From a virus (Duplodnaviria > Heunggongvirae > Uroviricota > Caudoviricetes), in IMG/VR virus record IMGVR_UViG_3300023214_000389: 64,000 nt of DNA; one strand, 5' to 3'. Of this stretch, positions 26,439-64,000 are shown in pieces (positions within the stretch are counted from its first letter, which is position 1; every line of letters begins with the position of its first letter). The position numbers and the translations under genes were made by a program. Below the pieces are notes generated by a model. The model was not told the DNA's origin. It saw only the letters and a program-made list of their open reading frames with translations, and searched no databases.

Positions 26439-29400
26439 ATGACAGAAAGACTTCCTGGCGTAAACTATCAAGCTCCATTAGCCACTGACGATCTGGAATT
26501 CCAGCAAAACAGCAATGGTGAGGAGATACAAGAGAGAACTCGTCTTATTATGTCGGGGTCCTTTGGTATTGTAGACTCTGCAAATCCAAGAGATGTAGCT
26601 ACTACAGATCTTAGCCGCCCGTTAAATGTTCTCCCATCCACCGACCCGTTAAGGGTAGATATTACACCCGGAACTGCTGTTACCGAAAACGGTAACTGGG
26701 TTAGTCTGGATAGCAAAATATTCCTGCTAAGTCTAGCTTCCACTGTCGTCGGGGCAGTAAATGTAGTTTACATAGAATACTTTCTAGAACCAGGGACTGA
26801 CAGAAGAATAAACAAGTTCAATGTAGATGTGGCTGTAAGACAGCAAAGGCCAGAAGACAATGACTCTGTAATTGGTGTTTCTACCTTAACCAATTTCCTT
26901 GATACATCCCAGTTCCCACCTAGTCGAAGAAAAGATATAGTTGTTTTAGGGGTTGTTACAGTTAATCAGCTCGCTGATTCTACTTTAGATATCACTATTG
27001 ACTTGGGTGATAATAACTTTAGCTTTAATAGGCCGTGGTTCAGCCCAGTTGATATTGAACACAGAAATATGACAGGAACGGCTACTCCAACGGATACGAA
27101 TCCTCATGGAACTAGCCTTAACGATCTAGCCGCTGCGCAACTAACTCTATATCAACAAGAAGTTTCTCATGGTATAGTTCTATCAAAAGATGTAAGTATT
27201 CCAAAAGCCCCAGGCATAAAAATAATTGAAGTTATTCAAGCTGCTAGTTTTCAAGTAGATGGGGATGGATCTATTACAGGTCGAGATTACTTATATGGTG
27301 GCTCCGGAGCCCAATGGGCAAATCTACAACACTTTCCAATCAGCCTAGGAAGTGTGTATGAGACAGGAAAGCCAGCTATCCAATTAGCGGCAAGTTTTAT
27401 CCAAGATGACAATATTATTGTAATACCTGAAAATGAACCCATTCCTGATGCTGGTGTTACTATAGAATATTTGTACGTTCAAGCAGGAGAAGCCCCAGTA
27501 GACCCAGCTACAAATGACTTAACTTTCACACAACCTGCTGAATCTGAGCTAATCATAGCTGATGGAATCGCAGTTTCGGAAATACCTACACCTCTCATAT
27601 CTTTTGACGGTTCTGGGCCTATACCAAGAGATTTTAGAGTTCTTATCGATTCTGACGGTGATCTTATTTCCACTCCTCAAATCTTACTACCTGCTATTAA
27701 ACTGGATGCTATTGGGTTAAACGTACCTCAAACAATTACTAGAGGTATGATGGGAGACGCGCCCATAGAAATAGGCATGACTAGAGCTGCTAATGTTTCT
27801 GGTATGCAGGTAGAAATATTAATTTCTGGAACTGGCACTGATGATCTCCCATTATCTGAGACCCTGACTTTTGAATTTGGAATTTACCAAGACTCAGCTA
27901 TTCCTGCCTCAGAAGAAGAACAGGATCAATTTGTTAGATCTTCTAGCTTGTTTAGAACGTTAGAGAGTGTCACGATACTTAATCGTGTTAATGATGGAAA
28001 TGATTCTACAATTATAGTATATGCTGATCAAGAAGCTGCCATTACAGATACTTTCAAAGAAAAATGCCCATTAGCCGATGTATTTTGGGACGGATTGGCA
28101 GTTGATTTTGTACTAGATGCTAGACCTGTTTCTTCGGAGCTTAGATTGCCGAAAACACCGATTTTTAATGGTGTGGGCGGGATGTTTCTCGGGGCACGAC
28201 CATGGGTGTATGAAGATCTAAGAGGACCAAGATATATAGATTCCTTCGAGGGTGATGAAAATGCTAACCCAGCAGAAGGATCTATTATCATAAATGATAA
28301 CTCCCTAATAGCAGACGGGGATACAATAGATTTAGGTAGTGGAAAAGTTTTAACTGCTATGGCCCCCGTCCAAGCAACGGGAATATTGTCGGCTCTTAAT
28401 TTCGGAATAAACATTTCTGTGGGTTTCAATACATTCACAGTTAACGAGGGGCCCTCAGGAGGTGGTGTAATAAATGTTAACATCTCAAATGGGGTAAAAA
28501 CGCCTCAACAAATTGCTATACAGTTAGCTTCAGCGCTAACAGCCTCTTCAGGAGCTGGGTTAACTTATAATGGAAATGCAACTCCAAACAGAGAAATTAC
28601 AATTTCTGCTACCGGGAATTTCAATATAGTGTCCAGCCCTTTGGGTGGGGTAATAGGATTGAACGGTGGCTCGGGAACTAACGCCTATACCGGTTCTTCC
28701 AATACAGGATTGGCTGATGGTGACCTATTTACTTTAAATGATGGAACAAATGAAGTAACTTTTGAATTCGACACGGGAAGCGGCCTAAATAACGGATCTC
28801 ATGTACCGATAATACCCGCTGGCGGCGATTTAGCTCTTTCCGGGGCCGTTCAAACAGCCATGGTTAATGCTATAAACGGGGCACCTATAGACATAACTGC
28901 TAGCGCAGGTACAGGAGCCAACGTAAATCTAGTGAACGATACTCCCGGATCCCAAGGTAACGAACCCATAATTGAATCTATTAGCACAGGGTCAACTTTA
29001 AACCCTAACGGGATGTCAAATGGATCGGATGGTGGAGCTGATGTATCTATAGGGGAGTTCAATCTTGGCTTAAGTGCTGATGCAGATACAACAGTTGACA
29101 ACATTATTGCAACCCTAGCCGACCCTACATTCGATTCTGGGATAGCAGGAACATCAACTGAGATAAATAGTTTACCTGCTGTTCAATTGGTTAAAAACGA
29201 TCCCGGTTTAAGCAATGATCAGATAATAGGTACATTTTTCAATTCTCCTGATCCTGTCACATTGGATGGTTTTTCAAAAGGTACCAACAGATACAGAGGT
29301 GTGTCTCCTGATTCCTTTGCTGAGGGTCTTAGAACTAGAATACCAGAAATCGGTACAGATTTGGACAGCATAAGAAAGAAGTATAGATCTAGAGCTGTGG

Positions 29401-30008
29401 CTAAGCCAATAAGTTTTGTAGATCCTGTGCAAAAGGCATCTGTCATTCTTCATAATCCCGGTAACGTTAGTGCTTTTTCAGTGCGTGTACGTGCTGCTTT
29501 TGAATCTAACCCAGGAAATTGGCAAGGCTATGATTTCATGCCTCTGATAGAAGCTAACCCTAGCTTCATTAGGTTTGAAAAAGATTTCGGATCAAATGTG
29601 CAAAAAGTTCAACTTGAAATGTTTGGAAAGTTTTCGGATTTTGCACTTATAGATGTAACTGATGTTGGGGTTGTAGGGATAGGTCCTACTGGACCTACTG
29701 GTCCTATAGCCCCCGCTGGGGCTACTGGTCCTGCTGGGGCTACTGGTCCTGCTGGAACCGACGGCACGGAAGGAGCTACTGGCGCAACCGGCCCTTCCGC
29801 CGATATCTTCGAGAGTGCTATTATTTCGTCTCAATCTACATGGACTGTTAACCACAACCTCAATACAGATGCAGTTGTTTGGGCTATATATGATAACAAC
29901 AATAATGCTATCATACCTTCTAATGTCGAAATATTGAGTGCAAACACCATAGAAATTACATGGGCTACACCCACTACAGGCAAAGTGGTAGTAGTAGGAG
30001 TTAGCTAA
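26439..30008 (+). CDS. large fiber-like protein with collagen-like Gly-X-Y segment
   Basis: 1189 aa; 'GPTGPTGPIAPAGATGPAGATGPAGTDGTEGATGATGPS' collagen-like repeat near C-terminus followed by a ~70-aa terminal domain. Confidence 0.45.
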   Translation: MTERLPGVNYQAPLATDDLEFQQNSNGEEIQERTRLIMSGSFGIVDSANPRDVATTDLSRPLNVLPSTDPLRVDITPGTAVTENGNWVSLDSKIFLLSLASTVVGAVNVVYIEYFLEPGTDRRINKFNVDVAVRQQRPEDNDSVIGVSTLTNFLDTSQFPPSRRKDIVVLGVVTVNQLADSTLDITIDLGDNNFSFNRPWFSPVDIEHRNMTGTATPTDTNPHGTSLNDLAAAQLTLYQQEVSHGIVLSKDVSIPKAPGIKIIEVIQAASFQVDGDGSITGRDYLYGGSGAQWANLQHFPISLGSVYETGKPAIQLAASFIQDDNIIVIPENEPIPDAGVTIEYLYVQAGEAPVDPATNDLTFTQPAESELIIADGIAVSEIPTPLISFDGSGPIPRDFRVLIDSDGDLISTPQILLPAIKLDAIGLNVPQTITRGMMGDAPIEIGMTRAANVSGMQVEILISGTGTDDLPLSETLTFEFGIYQDSAIPASEEEQDQFVRSSSLFRTLESVTILNRVNDGNDSTIIVYADQEAAITDTFKEKCPLADVFWDGLAVDFVLDARPVSSELRLPKTPIFNGVGGMFLGARPWVYEDLRGPRYIDSFEGDENANPAEGSIIINDNSLIADGDTIDLGSGKVLTAMAPVQATGILSALNFGINISVGFNTFTVNEGPSGGGVINVNISNGVKTPQQIAIQLASALTASSGAGLTYNGNATPNREITISATGNFNIVSSPLGGVIGLNGGSGTNAYTGSSNTGLADGDLFTLNDGTNEVTFEFDTGSGLNNGSHVPIIPAGGDLALSGAVQTAMVNAINGAPIDITASAGTGANVNLVNDTPGSQGNEPIIESISTGSTLNPNGMSNGSDGGADVSIGEFNLGLSADADTTVDNIIATLADPTFDSGIAGTSTEINSLPAVQLVKNDPGLSNDQIIGTFFNSPDPVTLDGFSKGTNRYRGVSPDSFAEGLRTRIPEIGTDLDSIRKKYRSRAVAKPISFVDPVQKASVILHNPGNVSAFSVRVRAAFESNPGNWQGYDFMPLIEANPSFIRFEKDFGSNVQKVQLEMFGKFSDFALIDVTDVGVVGIGPTGPTGPIAPAGATGPAGATGPAGTDGTEGATGATGPSADIFESAIISSQSTWTVNHNLNTDAVVWAIYDNNNNAIIPSNVEILSANTIEITWATPTTGKVVVVGVS

Positions 30009-35000: not shown

Positions 35001-35070
35001 TCTACACTTAGATTACCTTATGAATCAGTTACGTAAGCAAGAATCAGAAAGACAAAATAAGGCAGCTTAA
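32050..35070 (+). CDS. family A DNA polymerase with 3'-5' proofreading domain and N-terminal family-4 UDG-like domain
   Basis: UDG-like: 'C..C...C' cluster then 'FIGDSVGKHESANSLPFQGRGGDLL' (cf. GEaPG..E...G.PF.G.AG.LL); exo motifs 'LDTETKNL', 'HNAGFDY', 'YGASDSVY'; pol motifs 'TDTGRSSCTNPNLQQVP', 'LDFMTSEVRW' (motif A), 'RNDTKAIVFGTMFG' (motif B), 'VHDSLVLQVP' (motif C). Confidence 0.85.
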   Translation: MESGVLSFDCKQSQCPAYDRCDLVPTQVRVIKGTERPDEVILFIGDSVGKHESANSLPFQGRGGDLLRKTIRKLNVRKLTIAYTSITRYWPRNENGERCEPDPEAVSSCMTHLLRDVEHLKPSKIVALGSKALKILFPDAPGILKSRGKHFDHPQLGQIFVTYDPGLMLKKQNLFYQWEADLQLMLSSDKLVSKSNKWSKPYEWRLLSSVDEIEEYVEELINNKKLKIIALDTETKNLNARYDNTLGTLQFSEDGKRGTVIPYHHPKAGWWPDELKRIDNALIKLFTTPNPPWKYWVFHNAGFDYRMIFNFALGVTNFNRPLMDTGMMAYSQDENRGKSGIDKPYSLDSLLRDYLKVEKYEDKEIEQLKKQGKLLEIEIDRLAKYGASDSVYTFRLFFYILERAKREGYKDKLLKLCKHWFEPVSRMNSIMQSNGFWVDEHQLRVLGNNKTSPIVKRMEEIEKGWRSNANAIEANKRLVESSLGGKMASAFGGGKGSWEFSIDKMEHKRCLFFDVMNLEPLDYGKGTRIPLVEAPEGKEVAPTPVGKLDRAFQDRYSDLEEVALYHEWQGLKKLKTSYVTSIESFLDPRNGKEGAKDSRVRPTFWVTTTDTGRSSCTNPNLQQVPRADNWAKKEIKNMFAAEPGCALIQLDFMTSEVRWWGILAQCPALAKAFENGKIAREDYKTQSENYSRKHPKLRYEVVMAAEKMITDKFEMKKNSELNELKGKFPTKALKLAYRLMKNDIEFFNLIKTKVWSSVAGDLHKNTASQMYSVPLLEVNKSMRNDTKAIVFGTMFGRGPKAIAQQLKIADINDVQQKIRNFFDQFPDAEAWMYDSEKFGERNAYVESPIGRRRRLLTFQMGFGDEGEIARAKRIARNSPIQGISSDGAFLGASMFSEWLIEEGKWHVHPDKKCWLLQDVVHDSLVLQVPIEDVPEALQAVEPFFSTKLMERMENVWDINFNIELEVDFEIGLKWGDLVSWDGTNLHLDYLMNQLRKQESERQNKAA

Positions 35071-35237
35071 TGAGATTGTTCTGGTGGATAATCGGAACCA
35101 TAGGAACCGTTTTCCACGGTACTTTCTTCCTATTTTGTATTTTTGAAGGTATGTGGAAAGAATCCTTCCCCTTCGGCCTCTTTTTAGCTTGTTGTGTGTT
35201 CACACTCTGGAAGTATAGACTAAAGGGGACATCATGA
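35070..35237 (+). CDS. small hydrophobic (two-TM) protein, not in ORF track
   Basis: ATG overlaps polymerase stop (TAATG) and its stop overlaps next gene's ATG; translation 'MRLFWWIIGTIGTVFHGTFFLFCIFEGMWKESFPFGLFLACCVFTLWKYRLKGTS'. Confidence 0.3.
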   Translation: MRLFWWIIGTIGTVFHGTFFLFCIFEGMWKESFPFGLFLACCVFTLWKYRLKGTS

Positions 35238-35725
35238 GCAGATTCGTATATCTAGTAGGACCTATCACTGGGACCAGTTGGGTGGAAACTACTAACTGGA
35301 GAGAATATGCCAGAGATAGATTCAATCCAGGGATTGTAGGTCTTTCCCCCCTACGTGGGAAAGATTACCTTCAGCATGAAACATCCCTTGCTGACTCCTA
35401 TAAACAGCATGTTCTCAGCACCACCAGGGGCATTATGGTACGAGACGAATTCGACTGCCGCAATGCGGATGTGATTCTCGCCAATTTTTTGGGTGCAACA
35501 AGGGTTTCCATCGGATCTGTCATGGAAATCGCCTGGGCCTACATGTCCAAAAAACCAATCATTACTGTGATGGAGGCTGGAGGAGAAGACTTCACTGGTA
35601 AGAAGCTCTCTACCGGAAACTGTCACGAACACGCTATGCTGAACGAAGCTACTTCCTACAAAGTAGATACCCTAGACGCGGGAATTTTTGTAGTAAACTC
35701 AATACTGACTGGATATACCGAATGA
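35234..35725 (+). CDS. nucleoside 2-deoxyribosyltransferase-like / dNMP N-glycosidase (Rcl/DNPH1)-like protein
   Basis: 163 aa; 'VYLVGPITG' N-terminus and 'IGSVMEIAWAYMSKKPII' match Nuc_deoxyrib_tr fold signature (YLAGP...GTafElGyA.a.gKPv) including the conserved Glu. Confidence 0.5.
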   Translation: MSRFVYLVGPITGTSWVETTNWREYARDRFNPGIVGLSPLRGKDYLQHETSLADSYKQHVLSTTRGIMVRDEFDCRNADVILANFLGATRVSIGSVMEIAWAYMSKKPIITVMEAGGEDFTGKKLSTGNCHEHAMLNEATSYKVDTLDAGIFVVNSILTGYTE

Positions 35726-36642
35726 GCAATCGCAAGGCCGAAAATGTAGAAGTTGGTGAGGAACTCCGATGGAAGAACTTCCCGGTAGGGTCCGGGGGAT
35801 CTATTTGTCTAGTGGATTGGATGGGAGAAGACTATTCCATTGTAGAGGCTGCCAGAGTATCCTATGGTGAAGGAACCAGACATGTGTCTGATGATCGCAC
35901 TTTGATTAGATATCTTATGAGGCATTCTCACAGCACCCCACTAGAAATGGCAGAGCTAAAGTTTCGTATCCGGGTTCCGATGGATGTATGGAGACAGTGG
36001 ATAAGACATAGAACAGCCTCGGTAAACGAGTATTCGACGCGATATTCTGTAGCTATTGATGAATGTGTAACTACTTTGCCTGGAGAATGGAGATTACAGG
36101 CTAAGCACAATAAACAAGGCTCAGACGGGTACCTACCTATCACAGAAGGGGGAGAAATGCTTTCCTCCCGTGAGGCAGATTTTCACAAACAGGCCCGTGA
36201 GCTTTATGATGAAAGATTGGAATATGGTGTAGCTCGCGAACAAGCTAGAAAGGATCTTCCCCTCTCCAATTACACAGAGGCATTTTGGAAAATCGATCTA
36301 CACAATCTTTTTCATTTTTTGAGACTTCGAATGGATTCCCACTCTCAAAAAGAAATTAGAGATTTTGCCACTATTATCGGAGAAGAAATTGTCTCTAAGT
36401 TGTTTCCGGTATCCTGGGAAGCTTTTGTAGATTATAAACTTGAATCCTTGAATCTTACTAGATTAGATATTGAAGTAATTCGAAAAATAATGGTCTTATC
36501 GAATACGAATCGTACAGATACTTTGGAAGATCACTTCAATAACTCTCAACCTGAAGAATGGGCAAATCTAACGAGATGTCGTGAACGAGACGAGTGCAGA
36601 AATAAACTAAAAATTCTCGGGGTATTGACTAATGGCGAGTAA
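35722..36642 (+). CDS. thyX: flavin-dependent thymidylate synthase ThyX
   Basis: 306 aa; canonical ThyX signature 'RHRTASVNEYSTRYS' (RHR-x7-S.RY). Confidence 0.85.
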   Translation: MSNRKAENVEVGEELRWKNFPVGSGGSICLVDWMGEDYSIVEAARVSYGEGTRHVSDDRTLIRYLMRHSHSTPLEMAELKFRIRVPMDVWRQWIRHRTASVNEYSTRYSVAIDECVTTLPGEWRLQAKHNKQGSDGYLPITEGGEMLSSREADFHKQARELYDERLEYGVAREQARKDLPLSNYTEAFWKIDLHNLFHFLRLRMDSHSQKEIRDFATIIGEEIVSKLFPVSWEAFVDYKLESLNLTRLDIEVIRKIMVLSNTNRTDTLEDHFNNSQPEEWANLTRCRERDECRNKLKILGVLTNGE

Positions 36643-37292: not shown

Positions 37293-38069
37293 ATGCGCTC
37301 TTTCATTATTTTGCTGATTGCTGTAGCGGGGATGGTCCTCGCATCACCGTCTTACGCCATTTTTGATGGCGGAGATGACAACTCCACCAATAGCACCGCC
37401 CAGGCTACTGGGGTAGGCGTGGGTGTTGCTGGTTCGGACGCAGCGGCGAATGCTGGTGTGTCTAAATCTGGCAATAGTGCCAATCTCAACAAGAACAAAA
37501 ACACTGCTGTTTCTGGTTCCGGTGTTTTTGGGTCTGGTAATAGCAAGTCTACTGCTATTAACGGCCCGAACACCGCTGTTACTGGTCCATCTATTTCAGA
37601 TGCCTCTGCTTTCTCGGGGGTTGATTTCGAAGACGCCAGTTTCGGAAATAGCCGAAACGAAAACACCCTTGTAGGCAAGCAGAGTCAACATCAGGGGCAA
37701 AGTCAGAATCAAGGTCAGGTTACTGACACAGATCAGAAGAATAAGCAGGAAACCGATCTAAGTGTAGATGCATCCGATAGGTCTACCACTCTAGTGCAGG
37801 ATACTCGCGATCCTGTTGCTTCGGCTGCTCCTGTTTTTGCTTCTGCTTGTTCGGCTGGAGTTTCTGCCCAAAGCTACGGCTTTGGTGGTGCTCTAGCTAG
37901 TACCAATCCCATGTGTGATCTTGCCCTTGCGGTCGAGCTTGCTTTGAAGGTTGGTAACACCGAGCTTGCTAATGAGCTAACCGAGCGTGCGGCTTCTTTC
38001 TCTAAGAACCGCACGAACCCGGTTCGAGTATATGGCCAGTGGATTCCTTTCTTCGGACAGCTATTCTAG
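37293..38069 (+). CDS. secreted low-complexity Gly/Ser/Asn/Thr-rich protein ending in aromatic residue
   Basis: 258 aa; signal peptide 'MRSFIILLIAVAGMVLASPSYA'; many NST/NSA sequons and SG repeats; C-terminal '...GQWIPFFGQLF'; higher GC than flanks; GGAG RBS upstream. Confidence 0.45.
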   Translation: MRSFIILLIAVAGMVLASPSYAIFDGGDDNSTNSTAQATGVGVGVAGSDAAANAGVSKSGNSANLNKNKNTAVSGSGVFGSGNSKSTAINGPNTAVTGPSISDASAFSGVDFEDASFGNSRNENTLVGKQSQHQGQSQNQGQVTDTDQKNKQETDLSVDASDRSTTLVQDTRDPVASAAPVFASACSAGVSAQSYGFGGALASTNPMCDLALAVELALKVGNTELANELTERAASFSKNRTNPVRVYGQWIPFFGQLF

Positions 38070-38088
38070 TAGCTATTGAGGAATGTTG

Positions 38089-38112
38089 GGGCGGGGTTTA
38101 TCCCCGCCCCCT
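38089..38112 (+). other. GC-rich stem-loop (GGGGCGGGG-TTTAT-CCCCGCCCC) without U-tract
   Basis: perfect 9-bp inverted repeat between secreted-protein gene and OmpA-like gene; followed by AAGGAG RBS and ATG at 38132. Confidence 0.4.
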
Positions 38113-38131
38113 TGGACAAAAGGAGTCTACT

Positions 38132-38809
38132 ATGCAAAAAAATAGATCTGTTTTCTGGATTCTACTGATCGTAGCTTTCCTGCTTGCTTGGGGCGGCAAA
38201 TCTACCGCTGATACCAAGGTTCATGGTTTTAATATCCCAACGGCAGAAAGTTCCACGGATCCGCATATCGCGGTGTGCGGAGCTACCTCTTCTGGGACTA
38301 TTGAGGGGGGAGTTCAAGGGCGTCTCGCTGATCGTCGCATGTCTGGTACAGACAGCCGAACGTATGGCGTAGCGTACTGCTTTCCTGCACAAAGAGTCTC
38401 CGGTCCTAGGGAAGTATCCGTACCGGATCCGGTGACCGAAGCTATCGAAGTTGTAGAACACAAACTGGTAACCTTTTTTGATCACGACTCTGCGGATTTC
38501 TCAGATCTAAAAGCAGAGGAGGCAATTAAGGTTATTGTTGATTGGTTACGGACTACGCCAAGTGCTGGTCTCGTAGTCAAAGGGCATACGGATTCAACCG
38601 GAGATCCCGACTACAATATGGCTTTATCAGTTCAGCGTGCTGAAACTGTTAAAATGTTGTTTGTAGAAGCTGGAGTTTCACCCGATCGTATCAAATCTGT
38701 TGGATATGGTGAGACATCTCTATTAGTAAATGTACTAGGGAGAAACCAAGAAAATCGCCGAGTTGAAATCGAAGTTTTCCAGATTGAAGAAGTTCTTGTT
38801 CAAGAGTAA
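38132..38809 (+). CDS. OmpA-family peptidoglycan-binding protein with N-terminal signal/TM segment
   Basis: start moved from track's 38039 to ATG 38132 (AAGGAG 6 nt upstream; the region upstream contains a hairpin); C-terminal 'VVKGHTDSTGDPDYNMALSVQRAETVKMLF...GYGETSLLV...NRRVEIEV' is the OmpA_C signature. Confidence 0.6.
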   Translation: MQKNRSVFWILLIVAFLLAWGGKSTADTKVHGFNIPTAESSTDPHIAVCGATSSGTIEGGVQGRLADRRMSGTDSRTYGVAYCFPAQRVSGPREVSVPDPVTEAIEVVEHKLVTFFDHDSADFSDLKAEEAIKVIVDWLRTTPSAGLVVKGHTDSTGDPDYNMALSVQRAETVKMLFVEAGVSPDRIKSVGYGETSLLVNVLGRNQENRRVEIEVFQIEEVLVQE

Positions 38810-38818
38810 AGGAAGTAA

Positions 38819-38851
38819 GGGAGGGGCTTAAATGCCCCTCCCTTAGGTTTT
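38819..38851 (+). terminator. rho-independent terminator
   Basis: GGGAGGGGC-TTAAAT-GCCCCTCCC stem-loop followed by TTAGGTTTT, 10 nt after OmpA-like stop. Confidence 0.55.
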
Positions 38852-38861
38852 GGAGACTACT

Positions 38862-40007
38862 TTGAAGAAAGTGCTCGTAACATCTTGCCCATCGCTTCAC
38901 AATGTTGTTCAACTAGAACCTACCCTAGAAGCGATATATTACGAACATTTTCCTTGCGAATTAACCCTCCGAACATGGGAAGGTTACATTCCATTTTTTG
39001 AAAACCATCCTTTGATAGAAAATGTAATTACCAAAGACTCCAAAATCGATTTTATTCCCGAAGTAGAAATAATAGAAATATCAGATCTAGAATCGTGGGA
39101 CGCACCAGTAGCAACTGTAGATAAATTTGCTATATCCGCCAAAGTACAACTTCTACGTAAAACTCCAAAGATTTTCTTAAACCCTTTCCCTCCCGATAGA
39201 AACATAGTTGTCCAAGCTGATGTCCCTCACTTGTTAGATTCTTGGCATTTTCCAAATAATATAAAATCTTTCAAAGAAATCCCGATTGTAAGGCTTGAGC
39301 AACCTAAAAACAATGATTATCTAAGACTTCAATTAACGGTTTTAGCTTCTTCAGCTTTGGTGGTAGGTCCTGACAGTTGGATGACTCAAGCGGCAGCAGC
39401 ATTAGACGCCCGAGTAGTGATGGGCTTAGACTCTCCGCATAAAGAACCATTACGCGCCCCTATAAATGTTACTGTATCTAACAAAGATAAAGATAGCATT
39501 TTCAATACAGTGCAGGATGTTTTATATGAAAAACGATATCCAGATTTTCTAAACTGCGGTAACGCGGCTGAATTCATAAAAAACAAAGCTAAGATGTACA
39601 TGAAGTCAAATTTTATTGATGTGGGGTGCAGTAACTGGCCTATACCAAATGGAATTCCTGTTGATACGCACAATAGAGAAATTATAGAAAAAGCTCCTGA
39701 TAATTATTTTTCAGGAGTTTTTTCCTCACATTGCTTAGAACACATCCGAGATTGGAAGAAAGAGTTAAAATTATGGCATAGGGTTACCAGAAATGGAGGA
39801 TACATATTCATGTATCTACCTCACCCCCGTGCAGAAGTTTGGCATGCTTTTACCGGATCCTGGGTAGGTGACAACCATGTCTGGAATCCAGAACCTGTTA
39901 CTTTGGTAAAGTTCCTTAAAGAAGAATTAGGGATGAACATAATCGAATATACTTCTCGACGAGATTCTTTGTGGAGTTACTACATAATAGCGAGAAAATA
40001 TGACTAG
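38862..40007 (+). CDS. GT9 heptosyltransferase-like domain fused to class I SAM-dependent methyltransferase-like domain
   Basis: GT9 N-terminal motif 'KVLVTSCPSLHNVVQLEPTLEAIYYEHFPCEL' and 'LVVGPDSWMTQAAAALDARVVMGL' (cf. DSGpmHlAaAlg.P.v.lfG); MTase motifs 'IDVGCSNWP' and 'SSHCLEHIRDWKKELKLWHRVTRNGGYIF'; start chosen at TTG 38862 (GGAG 6 nt upstream) because track start 38850 lies in the terminator T-tract; GTG 38871 also possible. Confidence 0.5.
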   Translation: MKKVLVTSCPSLHNVVQLEPTLEAIYYEHFPCELTLRTWEGYIPFFENHPLIENVITKDSKIDFIPEVEIIEISDLESWDAPVATVDKFAISAKVQLLRKTPKIFLNPFPPDRNIVVQADVPHLLDSWHFPNNIKSFKEIPIVRLEQPKNNDYLRLQLTVLASSALVVGPDSWMTQAAAALDARVVMGLDSPHKEPLRAPINVTVSNKDKDSIFNTVQDVLYEKRYPDFLNCGNAAEFIKNKAKMYMKSNFIDVGCSNWPIPNGIPVDTHNREIIEKAPDNYFSGVFSSHCLEHIRDWKKELKLWHRVTRNGGYIFMYLPHPRAEVWHAFTGSWVGDNHVWNPEPVTLVKFLKEELGMNIIEYTSRRDSLWSYYIIARKYD

Positions 40008-40070: not shown

Positions 40071-40481
40071 ATGATGAAGAAAACCGATTCTGGGCCTTTG
40101 ATAGAGACTGAGGCTTCTCCTGAGAAGAAACTGGAAGCTACTTCCGAAGAACAGGTTGATACCAGCGCGTGGGATAACATCATCGAGCTTATCCTAAATC
40201 TGGACCCTGATAAGTACGGTAAGCCTTTCTCCGATGTTGAGCTTCAGAAGATGTGTGAGATCGTCTCTGCGGGCAGGGGGAAATTTCCTAAGAAAGTCAT
40301 CCCCTATGTGGAGCTTATGCGCAAGTTCCTTTTCGCAAACTATCAGCTCATCGCTTTGGCCGCTTTAGCTCACAAAACAGCCCAGGATAAATCCAAAGAA
40401 GAGAAACAGCTTGTCAAGCCGGCTAACTTCTCTGACCTGGGGAAGATAGAAGCCGAGAAGCTGAAGAATCAAGGTAGCTGA
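40071..40481 (+). CDS. small acidic hypothetical protein
   Basis: 136 aa, between the two GT9-like paralogs; ATGATGA overlap with next gene. Confidence 0.3.
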   Translation: MMKKTDSGPLIETEASPEKKLEATSEEQVDTSAWDNIIELILNLDPDKYGKPFSDVELQKMCEIVSAGRGKFPKKVIPYVELMRKFLFANYQLIALAALAHKTAQDKSKEEKQLVKPANFSDLGKIEAEKLKNQGS

Positions 40482-41617
40482 TGATGAACGTCACGAAGGT
40501 GCTAGTAACGAGATACGGCGGTGCCGGTGACATGATTATGATGGAACCGGTTTTAGAGGCATTGTACTACAAGTTCACGCCCGCAGAGATCCATCTTCGC
40601 ACGCATTTCCACTACACAGATCTTCATGAGTTCCACCCCCTGATTCAAAATATTGTTCCGGGTGTTCTAACAGCCAATCCGCAAGAGATGGCCAAAGGCA
40701 TTCTAAGCGACGAGAAGAAGCCTCAAGGGTTCGACTATTTCTATAACACAACCGGTAGCGTGGAAATGAACCGAGGCATACATGGTATAGATAGTTTTGC
40801 CTTTGCGTGCAGCGCAATCCCGTTCCGTAGAACCCCAGTGATGTATCTAGACCCCTCCGTCCCCGTAGAGTCCAGAGACATCGTGATCCATACCCCCAAA
40901 AAGACAGACAAGAGCCCACGAAACAACGACTTCAGAACGTTCGGAGCGTCGGCTGTGACCAAGTTTTTAGACCAGCAAGGTATAAAGTATGATTCTATTG
41001 TCGATATTGGGTCTGAACCAGAGACAGAAGACGCTCTACAAAATTTCGCCAGAACAATTGCCGGAGCCAAGCTGTTCATAGGCCCAGATTCGGCCGGGGC
41101 TCACATCGCCTCGGCGCTCAGCGTGCCAAGAATTGTAGCCGCATACACGGATTATTTCCCCGCAGGGATTAGAGCGTACCCAAACACTACAATCCCTGTT
41201 CGAGACAACAACATTGATGGCTTACTGAGTGCCGTTGAAACAGCCTACACAAGCCTACACAAGCCTCTACCAGATCCTCTAGTATCCCTGCTCGTAAAAT
41301 CACAGAAGTACGCTTACGGGAGAACCTGCGGCCCCCAGGATAAGGCAAATCAGTCGGGTTACGATCTGATCCAAAGGCTCCAAATAACTTTTGAAGAAAA
41401 CTGGAGACATGAGGTTTTTGATTTGATGGAAAGATTGTCCCCTAGGGGAATATTGTACTTGTACGAGAAGCACCCTAGGTTCGGTGGGACAGAAGATCCC
41501 ATAATGATCGCTAAATATCTAATCCAAACTTGTGGAATGGAAATTGTGGAATATTCTGCCACAGCAGACGAATATGGCCATTTTTTCGTCGAAGCTAGAA
41601 AGCTGGATCGTTCTTGA
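40481..41617 (+). CDS. GT9 heptosyltransferase-like protein (paralog of 38862..40007) with degenerate methyltransferase-like C-terminus
   Basis: 'KVLVTRYGGAGDMIMMEPVLEALYYKFTPAEIHL' and 'LFIGPDSAGAHIASALSVPRIVAAY' GT9 motifs; C-terminus 'RGILYLYEKHP...IVEYSATADEYGHFFVEARKLD' aligns with paralog C-terminus. Confidence 0.5.
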   Translation: MMNVTKVLVTRYGGAGDMIMMEPVLEALYYKFTPAEIHLRTHFHYTDLHEFHPLIQNIVPGVLTANPQEMAKGILSDEKKPQGFDYFYNTTGSVEMNRGIHGIDSFAFACSAIPFRRTPVMYLDPSVPVESRDIVIHTPKKTDKSPRNNDFRTFGASAVTKFLDQQGIKYDSIVDIGSEPETEDALQNFARTIAGAKLFIGPDSAGAHIASALSVPRIVAAYTDYFPAGIRAYPNTTIPVRDNNIDGLLSAVETAYTSLHKPLPDPLVSLLVKSQKYAYGRTCGPQDKANQSGYDLIQRLQITFEENWRHEVFDLMERLSPRGILYLYEKHPRFGGTEDPIMIAKYLIQTCGMEIVEYSATADEYGHFFVEARKLDRS

Positions 41618-41652: not shown

Positions 41653-41895
41653 TTGGAAACTGAATTAACTGGACCTTTTTCTAAATCTCGACAATGGCTT
41701 TTGAATTACCTATCAACAGCTAAATTTAGAAATGAAATTATACAAGGGTCATTAAAAGCTGATTGGTCTGAGGTGGAGCACGCACGTGCCGCCTATTTAC
41801 TGGGATGTCTTTGGGGGCGTTTGAGACAAGTAGATTCTTCCCTTGAGAATGCTACTGAATATGGAGCATTAGTAATAGAGGAGCTAAATGAATAA
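41653..41895 (+). CDS. hypothetical protein
   Basis: 80 aa, TTG start per ORF track; stop overlaps next ATG. Confidence 0.25.
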   Translation: METELTGPFSKSRQWLLNYLSTAKFRNEIIQGSLKADWSEVEHARAAYLLGCLWGRLRQVDSSLENATEYGALVIEELNE

Positions 41896-42527
41896 TGCAA
41901 GACTTCATAGTTTTAGACAATTGGCTTCCAATAGGGCAAGCAGAGGAAATTGCATCCAAAATTAGCAGAATACAAAATTGGGATGTTAGAATATGTGACA
42001 AAGACGGGGGCCCAAGAGTTGTAAAAAATGAGAGTCTCAAAAGTTTGGGAATAACAGCAGAGGAGTATGCTAAAGACTATCCAGAAAGTTTGGCCCAATT
42101 AGCCCGTGGCGGAACAATGGCTTACTTGTTCTTTGTCAAACATCTTTCTGAATTTGACCCTATCCTTCTAAATTGGTTTAATACAGAATTCTTGTCTACG
42201 GCTAATATGATTACTGAACAAGAGAATAACTATACAGAAGAGCCCCAGGTAACTATGTATTCATCTGGGTGCTTTCTTGGGCAACATAGTGATGGAGTCG
42301 GCTCTAGGCAGGTTGCCTTTATTGCAAATTTCACACGCAATTGGCAACCTGATTTTGGTGGGTGTCTTACTATTCTTACACAAGGCAAGTGGCAGGTAAT
42401 ACCTCCAAAATTCAATTCGATTGTTTTTATGAATGTTAGATCAGCAAATTGTCACTATGTTAGTCAAGTTTCGAGCTGGGTACAAAACAACAGAACCGCC
42501 ATTACAGGGTGGATAGGTAGAAGATAA
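41895..42527 (+). CDS. 2OG-Fe(II) oxygenase, prolyl 4-hydroxylase-like (2OG-FeII_Oxy_3-type)
   Basis: 210 aa; 'FLGQHSDGVG' (HxD), 'NWQPDFGGCLTIL' and C-terminal 'CHYVSQVS...NRTAITGWI' (H...R.S/TGW) match P4H-like dioxygenase core. Confidence 0.55.
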   Translation: MQDFIVLDNWLPIGQAEEIASKISRIQNWDVRICDKDGGPRVVKNESLKSLGITAEEYAKDYPESLAQLARGGTMAYLFFVKHLSEFDPILLNWFNTEFLSTANMITEQENNYTEEPQVTMYSSGCFLGQHSDGVGSRQVAFIANFTRNWQPDFGGCLTILTQGKWQVIPPKFNSIVFMNVRSANCHYVSQVSSWVQNNRTAITGWIGRR

Positions 42528-42528
42528 A

Positions 42529-43224
42529 ATGCCAAAACCAAAGCAACAAAAGCGCCTCCTAGTAGGTATTGCGCTTGACAGAAGTAGCTCTATGAACAGT
42601 GTTAAAGCTGAAACCATAAGCGGAACTAACGAACAATTTTCTGCTTTACGAGATTCTGATGATGCTGAAAATACCTTTGTTGCATTCGTTACATTTAATC
42701 AAATGGTTTTTCCTGTGTTTAACGATGGAGACATAAACAATCGAAAACCAATTCTCGTTCCATGCTCCAACCTTAAAGATATAGGGGATAATGATTACTT
42801 CCCAAGCGGTACTACTGCCATGAGAGATGGCGTTTTAGAATTGATTGAGTTTTTCGAAAATGAAGCTAAACCAATTGATGACGTATTAATTATTGTTATT
42901 TCTGACGGCATGGAAAACGCATCAAAGAGGATTTCTTCAGAAGAACTAGCTTCCAGGGTTAAAGAGCTTCAAGATGCGGGATGGAATTTTACCTATATTG
43001 GGGCTAACCAAGACCTTACCCAAGTAGCAGCAGAAACAGGAATTCATGCGGGTAATATACTTAAATGGACAGCAGATTCAGTAGGAACAAGTGAAGCACA
43101 TTATACAGTTTCTAATGCTGTACGTGCTTACACTTTAAGTCGTTCAGAATCTATTAAAAATGGTAATATGGACAGAGTTTCAACTAATTGTTTATACAGT
43201 GATTCTACTAGAGATGAAAACTAA
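42529..43224 (+). CDS. von Willebrand factor A (vWA) domain protein
   Basis: 231 aa; MIDAS 'DRSSSM', downstream 'T' and 'ISDGMEN' elements in typical spacing. Confidence 0.55.
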   Translation: MPKPKQQKRLLVGIALDRSSSMNSVKAETISGTNEQFSALRDSDDAENTFVAFVTFNQMVFPVFNDGDINNRKPILVPCSNLKDIGDNDYFPSGTTAMRDGVLELIEFFENEAKPIDDVLIIVISDGMENASKRISSEELASRVKELQDAGWNFTYIGANQDLTQVAAETGIHAGNILKWTADSVGTSEAHYTVSNAVRAYTLSRSESIKNGNMDRVSTNCLYSDSTRDEN

Positions 43225-44540
43225 TGGAGGAATTAAGTTTAGAACAAAAAGAATGCTTTGATGCTGCTATGAGCGATCGGAATGTATTTATTTCCGGAGC
43301 CGGAGGAGTTGGAAAATCTTTCTTAGTTAATGAAATCATAAAAGAATTCAAAGCTAGAGAAAGAAATTGTAGTGTCACAGCTTCCACTGGCGTTGCAGCT
43401 CTCAACGTAGGCGGGGTTACCATTCATTCTTTTTTAGGTACTGCAATAGCAGGGAATATAGAAGAGGCGAAAGTTAAATTAGGAACAAAAGCTCACCATT
43501 TTGCTATTGATAGGCTAAGAAGCGTACATTCTGTTATTGTTGATGAAATCTCCATGTTATCAGGAGATTATTTAACAATGATGGATTTCTGGATGCGTCA
43601 GTTAAGAGGTAACAATGAGCAGCCGTTTGGCGGATGTCAGGTAATCCTAGTAGGTGACTTTCTTCAGTTGCCTCCTGTTGAGAGAGATAGAAAGCCTCAA
43701 TATCGCTATGCATTTAATTCTCCCTCATGGGAAGAAGCCAACTTCGAAACTTTTGATCTAACTAGATCATTTAGACAGCAGGACCAAACTTTCATAAATG
43801 CTTTAAATAGAATTAGATTTGGCGATTATTCCAAAGAAGTTCGAAAAGTTTTTCGTCCATGCGTTGGAAGAGAGCTGGAAGATCCAACGTTCTTGGTATC
43901 AACTAACAAGGAAGCATCGGACATCAACGGCAGTAAGTTCATGATGCACCCTGGAGAGACATTTTCTGCAAAACCTTTGTTTTCAATGTCAGAAAATTTC
44001 AAATATGTGTTTAAGAAAAACAAAGATTTCTGGAAAGATATAAAAGGAAAACTGTCGAAAAATAGTTTAACAGATTGCCCATTAAGGTTGAAAATAGGAG
44101 TTCCTGTTCTTGTACTAAAGAATAACAGAATTAAAGGTTACGTTAACGGACAAAGAGGCTTGGTATCTGACATTCAAGTTACACCAAACAAAGAAATTAC
44201 AAGTGTTACAGTTGAGTTTCTTGACGGAAACTCTGTTTCTATCGAAAGAGAATCTTGGGATTGGCTGGACCCTAACAGATCTGTAATGGGTACAATGCAT
44301 CATTTTCCCCTAAGGCTAGGGTGGTCTATAACTATCCATAAAAGCCAAGGTCTTACGCTAGATAATGTAGAAGTGGACCTAAGTAAAGGATTTGCTGCTG
44401 GGCAAGCTTATGTAGCCCTATCTAGAATGAAGTCCCTAGAAGGTCTTGCCCTAACTGATGCAATAAACCCAGGAATAGTAAAAGCAGACAAAGAAATCAT
44501 CGACTTTTATGACAAGTCTAGGATAGCTAGAGAATCCTAA
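43224..44540 (+). CDS. SF1B DNA helicase, Pif1/RecD/Dda-like
   Basis: 438 aa; Walker A 'SGAGGVGKSFL', 'VIVDEISML', 'VILVGDFLQLPPV', C-terminal 'HKSQGLTLDNVEV...AYVALSRMKSLEGL' (UvrD_C_2-like). Confidence 0.7.
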   Translation: MEELSLEQKECFDAAMSDRNVFISGAGGVGKSFLVNEIIKEFKARERNCSVTASTGVAALNVGGVTIHSFLGTAIAGNIEEAKVKLGTKAHHFAIDRLRSVHSVIVDEISMLSGDYLTMMDFWMRQLRGNNEQPFGGCQVILVGDFLQLPPVERDRKPQYRYAFNSPSWEEANFETFDLTRSFRQQDQTFINALNRIRFGDYSKEVRKVFRPCVGRELEDPTFLVSTNKEASDINGSKFMMHPGETFSAKPLFSMSENFKYVFKKNKDFWKDIKGKLSKNSLTDCPLRLKIGVPVLVLKNNRIKGYVNGQRGLVSDIQVTPNKEITSVTVEFLDGNSVSIERESWDWLDPNRSVMGTMHHFPLRLGWSITIHKSQGLTLDNVEVDLSKGFAAGQAYVALSRMKSLEGLALTDAINPGIVKADKEIIDFYDKSRIARES

Positions 44541-44764: not shown

Positions 44765-47308
44765 TTGAGCCTGCACTGGGAGAGTTTTGTGTCGGATACC
44801 CAGAAGTGCCCCCACTGTGGAAGTGATTCACTTCAAAAACGTGGACTTACCAGATCAGAAGAACCAAAGCAGCAATATGCTTGCAATGAATGTGGACGCT
44901 GGTCTTTAATATCTATAGTTGAATTAAAAAGTGGTCCTGAATTCTTTCTTGATAAAAAGAAAGTAGCTGAGTTAGAACGTAAAGAAAGATATTTCATAAC
45001 TAGCTCACAAAATAACACTCATATAGACAGAAATTTCTGGAAAGCCATCAAACACTATACTAAGGAAAATGGCTCAGAACTTCTAATCCTCCCTATTCGT
45101 TACAAGAATCCTACATCTTACCTTCAGCCGCAAGATGATGACGATGCTGTATGGTGGCCTGAAGAAGTTCTAGATTATCTTGTTGAAAATAAGTTAAAAA
45201 TACACCCAGAACTGTGGATTATGGGGAACATGAGAATCCAAGCCACAATGGTAAACCCCCTATCTGGTTTGGAGGGCATGAGCCAGTATGCTTCTGCTAT
45301 CTACGGTCACGGGCAGCTTCAGATGAAGACAGTCCCTACTCCGCAGAATGCTCTTCCTAAGATACTTCACACTACTGGATCGTGTAGTGTTAAAAATTAT
45401 AGTAAAACCAAAGCAGGAGTTAAAGGTGAGTTTCACCACTCCAAAGCCGGACTAGTTGTGGAAAAGAAAGGAAAGAAATTCCACCTTAGACAAGTCATTT
45501 GGGATGGGGAATGCTTTTACGATTTAGATAAAAAGTACACCGCCAATGGAGTTACAAGAAACCACAGAATAGATGCCTTAGTAACCGGTGACGAACACGT
45601 TCTATTTAACGATCCGGAAGTAAAAGCTGCTACATACACTGACAATGGTTCTATAGCTAACACATTAAAACCGAAAGTTATAGTCCGTCATGATGTTTTT
45701 GACGGATACAGTATATCTCACCATCACAGAAACAATCCAGTTACTCAATACATAAAATGGAGAGAAAACATAAACAAAGTTGAAGATGAGTTGCAAGCCA
45801 CTATAAACTTCATAGAAGAAACCACCCCCCAAAATGCAACAAACATAATAGTTTCTTCAAACCATAATGAGCATCTGTATAGATGGTTAAGAGAAGTAGA
45901 TTGGAAAGCAGAGCCATGGAATGCCAAAATATATCACTGGTTTTGGTATAATATGCTAAATGAAGCTGAATTTGGGGAGTCTGGAGCTTTTACTTTCGAC
46001 CCATTCGCGTATTGGGCAGAACAGAACATGGACTCTAATTGCCCCATCAAATTCCTGGGGCGCGATGAGTCTTTCGTGGTAAACAAAATTGAGTTGTCTT
46101 TGCACGGAGACCTGGGTCCAAATGGTAGCAGGGGTTCTGCGGTCAACCTGAACAAAATTGGTATTCGGTCTGTAATCGGGCATTGCCTTACAGGAGACCA
46201 CGACGTACTAACGAGATCTGGATGGAAAAGCATAGCCGATGTTCCTTCTGGAAGTGAAATTCTTACTACAAAAGATGGTCATAACATTTGGTCTAAAACA
46301 ACAGAAAAACAAGAATATCTATATAGCGGAAAATTAGTTAACTTAAACCATTTAGGGCAGACTGTTACGCCAAATCACAGGATGGCTATGTCGGACGGAT
46401 CTTTAGTTCCTGTGTGTGAAGCTATTATGACAAGGAAAGCTAACGAGGTACCTATTTCTGCCGCTCCTTGCTCTGAAGGTATAATCTCTATACCAGAAAT
46501 GCCTTTGCGAAGACTTGTAGCTGCGTGTGCTGATGGCAGCTTTTACAAAAATAGTCTGTCTTTCAACCTAAAAAAGAATCGTAAGCACGAAAGGCTGAAG
46601 TTCTTGTTCGGTGATTCCCTTCGTGACAAAGGATCTGTCAAAGGCAACGGAGCAATTCGAAGAACAGTATCTATGGGTTCTGAACCCTACAAAGAAATCA
46701 TCAAGTATATAAATCCAACCACAGAATGTAAAAGACTACCTCATTGGTTTATAGACTTATCGGAAGAATGCCGATCAATAGTCATTGACGAACTAGTATA
46801 CTGGGATGGCACAGGAAGAGATTGCGAAGCAGGAAAACAGTTCTCGACTTCAAAAGAGGACGAAGCTAATATAGTTGCAGCTTTGTGTACTTTACAAGGA
46901 TACCGTACAATCTTCTTAGAAAGGGTAGACCACGGACGCACAGAGTATTTGGTTACTTGGACACAAGGCGAGCCAGCACACAGCACTGATCAAGAGCATG
47001 ACGAAGCGCGTATAGGAGCTTGGCAGGCAAATACTATAAATGTCGAGAATGAGGCCGTATATTGTTTCACAGTTCCCGAAACCCATTGTTTTTGGGTAAG
47101 GGACAAGAAAAAGGGAAAGGTCTCGTTAACTGGAAATTCCCACAGCCCTTGTATAGAAAAGGGCGTCGTGCAAGTAGGAACCAGCTCCTACCTGAAGCTG
47201 GAGTACAACCCAGGTCCCAGCTCGTGGATGAATTCTCATTGTGTTGTATATAAGAATGGAAAACGAGCCCTACTCAACGTACTCGACGGCGGAGAATGGC
47301 GCGGGTAG
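44765..47308 (+). CDS. Zn-ribbon + calcineurin-like metallophosphoesterase-like protein interrupted by an intein
   Basis: N-terminal 'CPHCGS...CNECGRW' zinc ribbon; phosphoesterase-like motifs 'VTGDEHV', 'HDVFDG', 'SSNHNEH', 'LHGD', and 'VIGH|...|SHSP' (GH.H split by intein); TTG start per track. Confidence 0.5.
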   Translation: MSLHWESFVSDTQKCPHCGSDSLQKRGLTRSEEPKQQYACNECGRWSLISIVELKSGPEFFLDKKKVAELERKERYFITSSQNNTHIDRNFWKAIKHYTKENGSELLILPIRYKNPTSYLQPQDDDDAVWWPEEVLDYLVENKLKIHPELWIMGNMRIQATMVNPLSGLEGMSQYASAIYGHGQLQMKTVPTPQNALPKILHTTGSCSVKNYSKTKAGVKGEFHHSKAGLVVEKKGKKFHLRQVIWDGECFYDLDKKYTANGVTRNHRIDALVTGDEHVLFNDPEVKAATYTDNGSIANTLKPKVIVRHDVFDGYSISHHHRNNPVTQYIKWRENINKVEDELQATINFIEETTPQNATNIIVSSNHNEHLYRWLREVDWKAEPWNAKIYHWFWYNMLNEAEFGESGAFTFDPFAYWAEQNMDSNCPIKFLGRDESFVVNKIELSLHGDLGPNGSRGSAVNLNKIGIRSVIGHCLTGDHDVLTRSGWKSIADVPSGSEILTTKDGHNIWSKTTEKQEYLYSGKLVNLNHLGQTVTPNHRMAMSDGSLVPVCEAIMTRKANEVPISAAPCSEGIISIPEMPLRRLVAACADGSFYKNSLSFNLKKNRKHERLKFLFGDSLRDKGSVKGNGAIRRTVSMGSEPYKEIIKYINPTTECKRLPHWFIDLSEECRSIVIDELVYWDGTGRDCEAGKQFSTSKEDEANIVAALCTLQGYRTIFLERVDHGRTEYLVTWTQGEPAHSTDQEHDEARIGAWQANTINVENEAVYCFTVPETHCFWVRDKKKGKVSLTGNSHSPCIEKGVVQVGTSSYLKLEYNPGPSSWMNSHCVVYKNGKRALLNVLDGGEWRG
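46184..47137 (+). other. intein with LAGLIDADG homing-endonuclease domain (318 aa)
   Basis: Block A 'CLTGDHDVLT', block B 'GQTVTPNHRM' (TxxH), LAGLIDADG-like 'LVAACADGSFY' and 'IDELVYWDGTG', block F 'VYCFTVPETHCFWV', C-terminal 'SLTGN' followed by +1 Ser; penultimate Gly instead of His. Confidence 0.6.

Positions 47309-62161: not shown

Positions 62162-64000
<1,839 letters not shown>

Follow-up and report, generated by a model that had tools for sequence, protein, structure and literature searches.

A predicted OGFOD1/Tpa1-like 2-oxoglutarate oxygenase is an optional gene in the replication block of an uncultivated phage

We analysed a 64,000-nucleotide stretch of a Caudoviricetes genome (IMG/VR record IMGVR_UViG_3300023214_000389; the window), focusing on a gene for a 2-oxoglutarate (2OG)-Fe(II) oxygenase and its surroundings. 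A sequence-only reading of this DNA had placed adjacent open reading frames (ORFs) at 41895..42527 and 42529..43224, both of which are confirmed, and had proposed that the first, a prolyl 4-hydroxylase (P4H)-like enzyme, acts together with the adjoining vWA-domain protein and a glycosyltransferase cassette on collagen-like fibres of the virion. Our analysis argues against the oxygenase being a virion collagen hydroxylase or a component of a dedicated fibre-modification module. Its sequence and predicted fold place it in the prolyl hydroxylase (PH)-like clade, with a predicted active site of the OGFOD1/Tpa1 type, and the gene is an accessory insertion that several syntenic relatives lack.

Family and active site of the oxygenase

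41895..42527, + strand: single-domain 2OG-Fe(II) oxygenase, 210 aa, PH-like and OGFOD1/Tpa1-type by motif, profile and fold comparison

The HxD...H...R arrangement noted previously is intact (H131-x-D133...H187...R200). The Fe ligands (H131, D133 and H187) show no variation across 20 orthologues or across 15 aligned distant homologues, and R200, also invariant and on the strand after the distal His, is by position the ligand of the 2OG C5 carboxylate. Pfam assigned the protein to PF13661 (68.8 bits) and PF13640 (48.2 bits; gathering cut-off of 27 bits for each family) and gave no match to PF10637, the protein ending at residue 210 directly after the catalytic domain, which folds as a double-stranded beta-helix (DSBH). 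No signal peptide was visible by eye in the N terminus (MQDFIVLDNW...). PHROG returned no match to the oxygenase at E ≤ 0.01, NCBIfam none for either the oxygenase or the vWA protein, and PADLOC only its generic CRISPR-associated '2OG' model. The protein bears no AlkB (PF13532) or TET/JBP (PF12851) signature, and neither type is its closest fold; the comparison with these nucleic-acid oxidases that the sequence-only reading had called for thus came out in favour of a PH-like fold and sequence. On the alignments and the predicted structure, the oxygenase belongs to the PH-like clade and not to AlkB/TET.

In HMMER alignments, G-C-F-L128-G-Q-H131-S-D133-G-V-G-S-R138 pairs with G-C-H-L-L-T-H-D-D-V-I-G-S-R of Tpa1, the same motif (L128-G-Q-H131-S-D133...R138) pairs with ...L-L-C-H-D-D-E-L-E-G-R of OGFOD1, and R200-x-x-I-x-G-W206 pairs with R-L-S-I-x-G-W of Tpa1/OGFOD1, so that L128, R138 and W206 match the OGFOD1 substrate-groove residues L152, R162 and W236. 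Prolyl hydroxylases all share an Arg at the mouth of the active site (PHD2 R322, CrP4H R161), where it hydrogen-bonds to the carbonyl of the substrate proline, and 4-hydroxylases all have in addition a Tyr located three positions ahead of the first His (PHD2 Y310, CrP4H Y140) (PMC4396695). The mouth Arg of the phage enzyme, R138, aligns with the Arg of OGFOD1 HDDELEGR (R162 in the numbering of PMC4396695) and of Tpa1 G-S-R; it is invariant in the clade and lost in 2 of the 15 distant homologues. The position of the P4H Tyr is occupied by Leu128, which is invariant in the clade, nearly invariant in the distant homologues and aligned with OGFOD1 L152; the 'PHD-like' L152Y variant of OGFOD1 indicates a Leu at the comparable site of that enzyme (PMC4396695). 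The predicted active-site architecture is therefore OGFOD1/Tpa1-type and lacks the P4H Tyr.

Database comparisons pointed to the same enzymes. In a single-sequence search of the PDB, Tpa1 and OGFOD1 were the sole significant solved relatives (E about 1e-5), and a profile of the 20 orthologues gave OGFOD1 at 5.8e-9, Tpa1 at 1.3e-6, PHD2 at about 0.03 and PPHD at 0.12. Run against all PDB sequences, this profile returned no collagen-type P4H at E ≤ 10 (C-P4H, CrP4H, vCPH and Bacillus anthracis P4H were all missing). The top figures for structural matches were 15.7 (Pseudomonas putida PPHD), 15.3 (Trichoplax PHD), 15.1 (PHD2), 15.0 (OGFOD1) and 13.7 (Tpa1), followed by the collagen-type enzymes PBCV-1 vCPH (13.3), CrP4H (12.8) and human C-P4H-II and B. 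anthracis P4H (both 11.6), and then by ALKBH7 (11.5), NgTET (11.4) and AlkB (10.5). The best match in a set of predicted viral structures was to a 'TPA1/OFD1 N-terminal domain' protein from a giant virus (9.6e-10; TMq 0.74), and cyanophage 2OG oxygenases came next at about 6e-6, approximately four orders of magnitude weaker. The earlier P4H-type assignment thus holds at the level of the superfamily and the PH-like clade and fails for collagen P4H, given Leu128 and the profile search. Because the second domain (Ofd1_CTDD) is missing, the oxygenase is not filed as an orthologue of OGFOD1/Tpa1.

The predicted model contains a conserved 14-residue hairpin (residues 30–43) and a short helix (193–197), and W29, R32, C34, D35, P40 and R41 of the hairpin region are invariant. 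The motif W-x-x-R-I-C-D-x-x-x-x-P-R (residues 29–41; window 41979–42017) was found only in the phage clade and its nearest outgroups (P0023–P0025), and may correspond to the beta2–beta3 'finger' hairpin that PHs use, along with a C-terminal helix, in binding substrate.

An optional gene beside a conserved vWA–Pif1 pair

41653..41895, + strand: conserved 80-aa ORF, overlapping the oxygenase ATG by one base of its TAA stop and forming the left edge of the insertion site
42529..43224, + strand: vWA-domain protein, 231 aa (phrog_7371, 2e-31), with a complete MIDAS motif
43224..44540, + strand: Pif1/Dda-like SF1 helicase (PF05970, 7e-40; phrog_325, 1e-73), overlapping the vWA stop codon by one base at its start
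38850..40007, + strand: GT9 (heptosyltransferase)-like protein with a SAM-methyltransferase-like region (paralogue A); most relatives have it, whether or not they carry the oxygenase
40481..41617, + strand: GT9 (heptosyltransferase)-like protein (paralogue B); found in oxygenase-positive and oxygenase-negative relatives alike

The vWA gene begins 2 nt past the oxygenase, and the 80-aa ORF, oxygenase, vWA and Pif1 genes form a tightly packed co-directional run. As proposed earlier, the neighbour of the oxygenase is a vWA protein with a MIDAS: it has a Rossmann-like vWA fold and the complete set D17-x-S19-x-S21, T96 and D126.

No near relative was found among GenBank phages, and tblastn with the oxygenase gave a single weak match in 50,697 phage records. 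Metagenomic orthologues (55–75% identity) lie on contigs that share the gene order of the window: PolA with an N-terminal family-4 uracil-DNA glycosylase (UDG) domain, Ndt-like, ThyX, (GyrB), a secreted protein, OmpA-like, two GT9-like genes, small ORFs, oxygenase, vWA, Pif1, (TopoIV/GyrA), T5 A1-like and ClpP. One relative is a 184-kb IMG/VR contig, and the clade comprises uncultivated phages of roughly 185–270 kb that have baseplate genes of myovirus type and come from metagenomes of marine sediment and other sources. Records of the clade include IMGVR_UViG_3300037755_000305, which has the oxygenase, and SDBT01000019.1, SDBU01000030.1 and IMGVR_UViG_3300005253_001115, which are oxygenase-negative. 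A scan of 185,579 species genomes with the clade motif found no relative, and a metagenome scan contributed nothing beyond fragments and three distant loci of low GC. An 828-aa downstream protein was poorly conserved in alignment.

Five syntenic relatives (L012, L013, L014, L020 and L021; L014 is the same phage as L019, discussed below) lack the oxygenase between the 80-aa ORF and the vWA gene. In all five, the GT9-like genes, the small ORFs, the 80-aa ORF and the vWA gene are retained and Pif1 comes next, either directly or past one small inserted gene; the oxygenase is therefore an accessory insertion and not one half of a vWA pair. Pif1 adjoins or is near the vWA gene in all relatives; the helicase, rather than the oxygenase, is the conserved partner of vWA. 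Other genes also enter this site, with an extra Ndt-like gene between oxygenase and vWA in L001 and an HNH endonuclease between vWA and Pif1 in L021; together with the five absences, these insertions identify the 80-aa ORF/vWA/Pif1 junction as a hot spot for optional genes. Close vWA homologues outnumber oxygenase homologues, several lying on contigs of 129–267 kb with no listed oxygenase homologue, and distant homologues of vWA turn up in 208 phage records of GenBank, including Otagovirus COT4 and Caulobacter phage Cr30, in which the gene sits among replication genes and no neighbour is annotated as an oxygenase. A literature search found no description of a phage vWA–Pif1 module.

In genomes that have it, the oxygenase shows higher conservation than the adjacent genes (60–73% versus 57–62%), a sign of purifying conservation. 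Given this conservation, a GC content and GC at third codon positions (GC3) equal to those of neighbouring genes, and its absence in relatives, the gene is best described as functional, long-resident and dispensable.

The nearest outgroup clusters of the oxygenase are labelled hypothetical or with the COG name 'Rps23 Pro-64 3,4-dihydroxylase Tpa1-like'. One candidate homologue, P0028 (a repeat adhesin of 2911 aa), gave 12 matched stretches but was rejected as a spurious additive match on a 'DGPPRV' repeat. Proteobacterial homologues of about 30% identity occur in Roseateles, Lysobacterales, Shewanella, Alteromonas, Novosphingobium and others (L022–L101); a co-directional TonB-dependent receptor (TBDR) lies immediately upstream in 34 of the 80 loci, and TPR-2OG-FeII_Oxy_5 and TPR-sulfotransferase proteins recur nearby. 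These TonB-linked homologues constitute an uncharacterised TBDR-linked oxygenase family.

Collagen-like tracts

29718..29798, + strand: Gly-X-Y tract near the C terminus of a tail-fibre-like protein of 1189 aa (26439..30008); 9 triplets without interruption, with Pro at 3 X positions and at no Y position
63443..64000, - strand: Gly-X-Y N-terminal stalk of a fibre/spike-like gene (62162..>64000, running off the window); at least 62 triplets, 2 Pro in X and 0 in Y

Both Gly-X-Y tracts that had been taken for collagen-like fibre proteins exist, with corrections: the first amounts to nine triplets near a C terminus (Pfam Collagen 0.0023, below threshold), and the second is on the minus strand and almost proline-free. 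Together they hold no Pro in Y and about 5–7 Pro in X over more than 70 triplets, peptides from the fibres including GPTGPTGPIAPAGATGPAG and (GST)n/(GET)n. Located within the replication block, the oxygenase is separated by about 12 kb from the 1189-aa fibre gene and by about 20 kb from the (GST)n gene on the minus strand; myovirus baseplate and fibre genes are present upstream of PolA. Bacterial and phage collagen-like proteins generally fold without hydroxyproline.

PolA-centred relatives were retrieved with a five-sequence PolA alignment scan, and their loci cover both the fibre gene and the oxygenase site; IMG/VR scans with single proteins (the 1189-aa fibre protein, the (GST)n C-terminal domain or PolA) returned nothing, and a two-sequence PolA alignment returned one unrelated phage only. 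Three loci carry an orthologue of the 1189-aa protein:

L017: oxygenase present; tract of 13 triplets with 2 Pro
L018: contig ends before the oxygenase site; two tracts of 7 and 10 triplets with 3 Pro, all in X
L019: oxygenase absent; tract of 10 triplets with 3 Pro

The short C-terminal tract is kept at all three loci, with one Pro in Y overall across the three orthologous fibres. Because L019, the one oxygenase-negative genome in this comparison, keeps the tract, the fibre tract is independent of the oxygenase, nor does the presence of the oxygenase go with a higher Pro content; the suggested co-occurrence of oxygenase and collagen-like fibre is thus not borne out. A divergent second oxygenase elsewhere in the oxygenase-negative genomes is possible.

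Gly-X-Y repeats are missing from all 21 homologues of the C-terminal domain of the (GST)n protein, and we therefore regard the stalk, from these sequences, as a lineage-specific addition; the homologues lie on unrelated phages. The domain itself weakly matches a phage depolymerase C-terminal beta-sandwich. The stalk DNA is a near-perfect 9-bp repeat (63858–64000, 94% matches) with higher-order units of 36 and 99 bp, and the stalk seems to be a recent, repeat-driven addition.

Other features of the window

DNA polymerase A (32050–35070) carries an N-terminal family-4 UDG-like domain (NCBIfam Arch_udg, 1.4e-20), a fusion conserved in relatives, and is followed by an Ndt-like protein (35234–35725; Pfam below threshold) and ThyX (35722–36642). 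Between ThyX and the GT9-like genes lie a low-complexity protein with a signal-peptide-like N terminus (37293–38069) and an OmpA-domain protein (38039–38809; PF00691, 1e-16). These envelope-directed genes (37293–38809) sit inside the replication block, where L004 has an extra outer-membrane beta-barrel protein. The two GT9-like paralogues are about 380 aa each; the GT9-like part is N-terminal in both, and the SAM-methyltransferase-like part, present at least in A, is C-terminal. In the 40-nt gap between the OmpA-like and first GT9-like genes, a perfect 12-bp GC-rich inverted repeat (TAAGGGAGGGGC...GCCCCTCCCTTA; 38816–38845) may be a terminator or regulatory hairpin; promoter and terminator scans were at or below chance.

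The T5 A1-like 'DNA transfer' protein (ORF 44765–47308, + strand; phrog_1745, 7e-134) has 847 aa, against 519–522 aa in relatives. Global alignment with the L012 orthologue located a 318-aa insertion (residues 474–791; window 46184–47137) that starts after ...VIGH with CLTGDHDV and ends with ...SLTGN before SHSP; it resembles an intein whose core is of homing-endonuclease size. L013 has a Hint/LAGLIDADG insertion in another gene, which is TopoIV/GyrA-like.

Proposed function and alternatives

The best explanation, which we advance tentatively, is that the oxygenase is an intact, cytoplasmic, single-domain PH-like hydroxylase with an OGFOD1/Tpa1-type site, carried as an optional gene and directed at a non-collagen target. 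It would be co-expressed with the replication genes and, using O2 and 2OG, would hydroxylate a prolyl residue of a non-collagen protein, probably with C-3-type rather than collagen-type C-4 geometry. By analogy with OGFOD1/Tpa1 and PPHD, the host translation apparatus (the uS12 decoding-loop proline or EF-Tu) would be the most plausible target class; the target might also be some other cytoplasmic protein of host or phage. Bacterial uS12 keeps the equivalent proline (KKPNSA loop; eukaryotic Pro62). In the window, a uS12-loop (PNSA) or EF-Tu-like motif appeared solely as an antisense artefact and in no real ORF. The specific proposal that a minimal OGFOD1/Tpa1-type hydroxylase modifies a host translation proline during infection, whether in the uS12 decoding loop or in EF-Tu switch I, is quite unlikely as it stands and draws on analogy: OGFOD1 and Tpa1 target the uS12 decoding-loop proline and PPHD targets EF-Tu switch I (PMC4396695, PMC4682802). 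If true, decoding accuracy or elongation would be retuned in an O2-, Fe- and 2OG-dependent manner, and bacteria would have their first example of a viral enzyme that hydroxylates the ribosome or a translation factor.

The enzyme might instead act, with the neighbouring envelope genes, on a small molecule or envelope component (a siderophore or uptake-related compound, or a sugar or lipid of the lipopolysaccharide core), as an auxiliary gene for host-surface remodelling or nutrient acquisition. We consider this unlikely: the GT9-like and OmpA genes are found in most relatives regardless of the oxygenase and do not co-vary with it, the residues expected to contact a prolyl backbone (R138 and W206) are conserved, Pfam gave no match to LpxO/Kdo-hydroxylase-type families, and the TonB-linked homologues are distant.

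Some of the context would suit a nucleic-acid or nucleotide oxidase, serving DNA repair or base modification within a replication module of PolA–UDG, Ndt-like, ThyX and Pif1. The replication and nucleotide-metabolism setting recurs in all relatives, and the extra Ndt-like gene of L001 is inserted directly beside the oxygenase; Tpa1 itself was formerly proposed to repair alkylated DNA, although PMC6746446 reports against this. We rate this reading as very improbable for an enzyme with PH-like fold and sequence.

Least probable of all is hydroxylation of prolines in the collagen-like fibres as part of a post-translational modification module with the vWA and GT9-like genes, given the lack of X-Pro-Gly sites, the missing P4H Tyr, the lack of a detectable sequence relation to collagen P4Hs, the location in the replication block and the persistence of the vWA and GT9-like genes without the oxygenase.

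The result is useful for annotation rather than surprising, and it removes an attractive but unsupported story of bacteriophage collagen hydroxylation. A compact, well-conserved OGFOD1/Tpa1-like enzyme with natural presence/absence variants is also a tractable candidate for phage hydroxylation of host translation proteins.

Comparison with known enzymes

Collagen-type P4Hs (human C-P4H, Chlamydomonas CrP4H, PBCV-1 vCPH and B. anthracis P4H) and the mimivirus collagen lysyl hydroxylase L230 are lower-ranking structural matches that the profile does not detect, and the phage enzyme differs from the P4Hs in having no conserved Tyr and no peptide-substrate-binding or TPR domain; a literature search found no characterised phage collagen P4H. 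Pseudomonas PPHD (an EF-Tu prolyl 4-hydroxylase) and the animal PHD/EGLN enzymes show marginal profile similarity (E 0.03–0.12), and differ in that the Tyr conserved in P4Hs is Leu in the phage enzyme and in that the Arg spacing after HxD departs from that of PHD2.

PH-like 2OG oxygenases are widespread, and functionally uncharacterised, in marine phages (PMC12774648). The cyanophage and marine-phage enzymes (PHROG 61; EGLN3-like) resemble the present one in being phage-borne, small, PH-like and auxiliary (PMC12774648), whereas the present enzyme has no PHROG match and its structural matches to them are far weaker than those to the TPA1/OFD1 type. The closest resemblance is to OGFOD1/Tpa1/Ofd1, the uS12/Rps23 prolyl 3- or 3,4-hydroxylases (PF13661), which are the best PDB sequence and profile matches and share the H-x-D-x-[VI/L]-x-G/S-R spacing, with Leu at His-3, Arg at Asp+5 and Trp at Arg+6 (PMC4396695). 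Unlike these enzymes, which have a second, non-catalytic DSBH-like C-terminal domain (Ofd1_CTDD), the phage protein consists of the catalytic DSBH alone and is encoded by a bacteriophage. Phage PH-like 2OG oxygenases are thus already known, and the oxygenase described here is a new, rare member of OGFOD1/Tpa1-like character.
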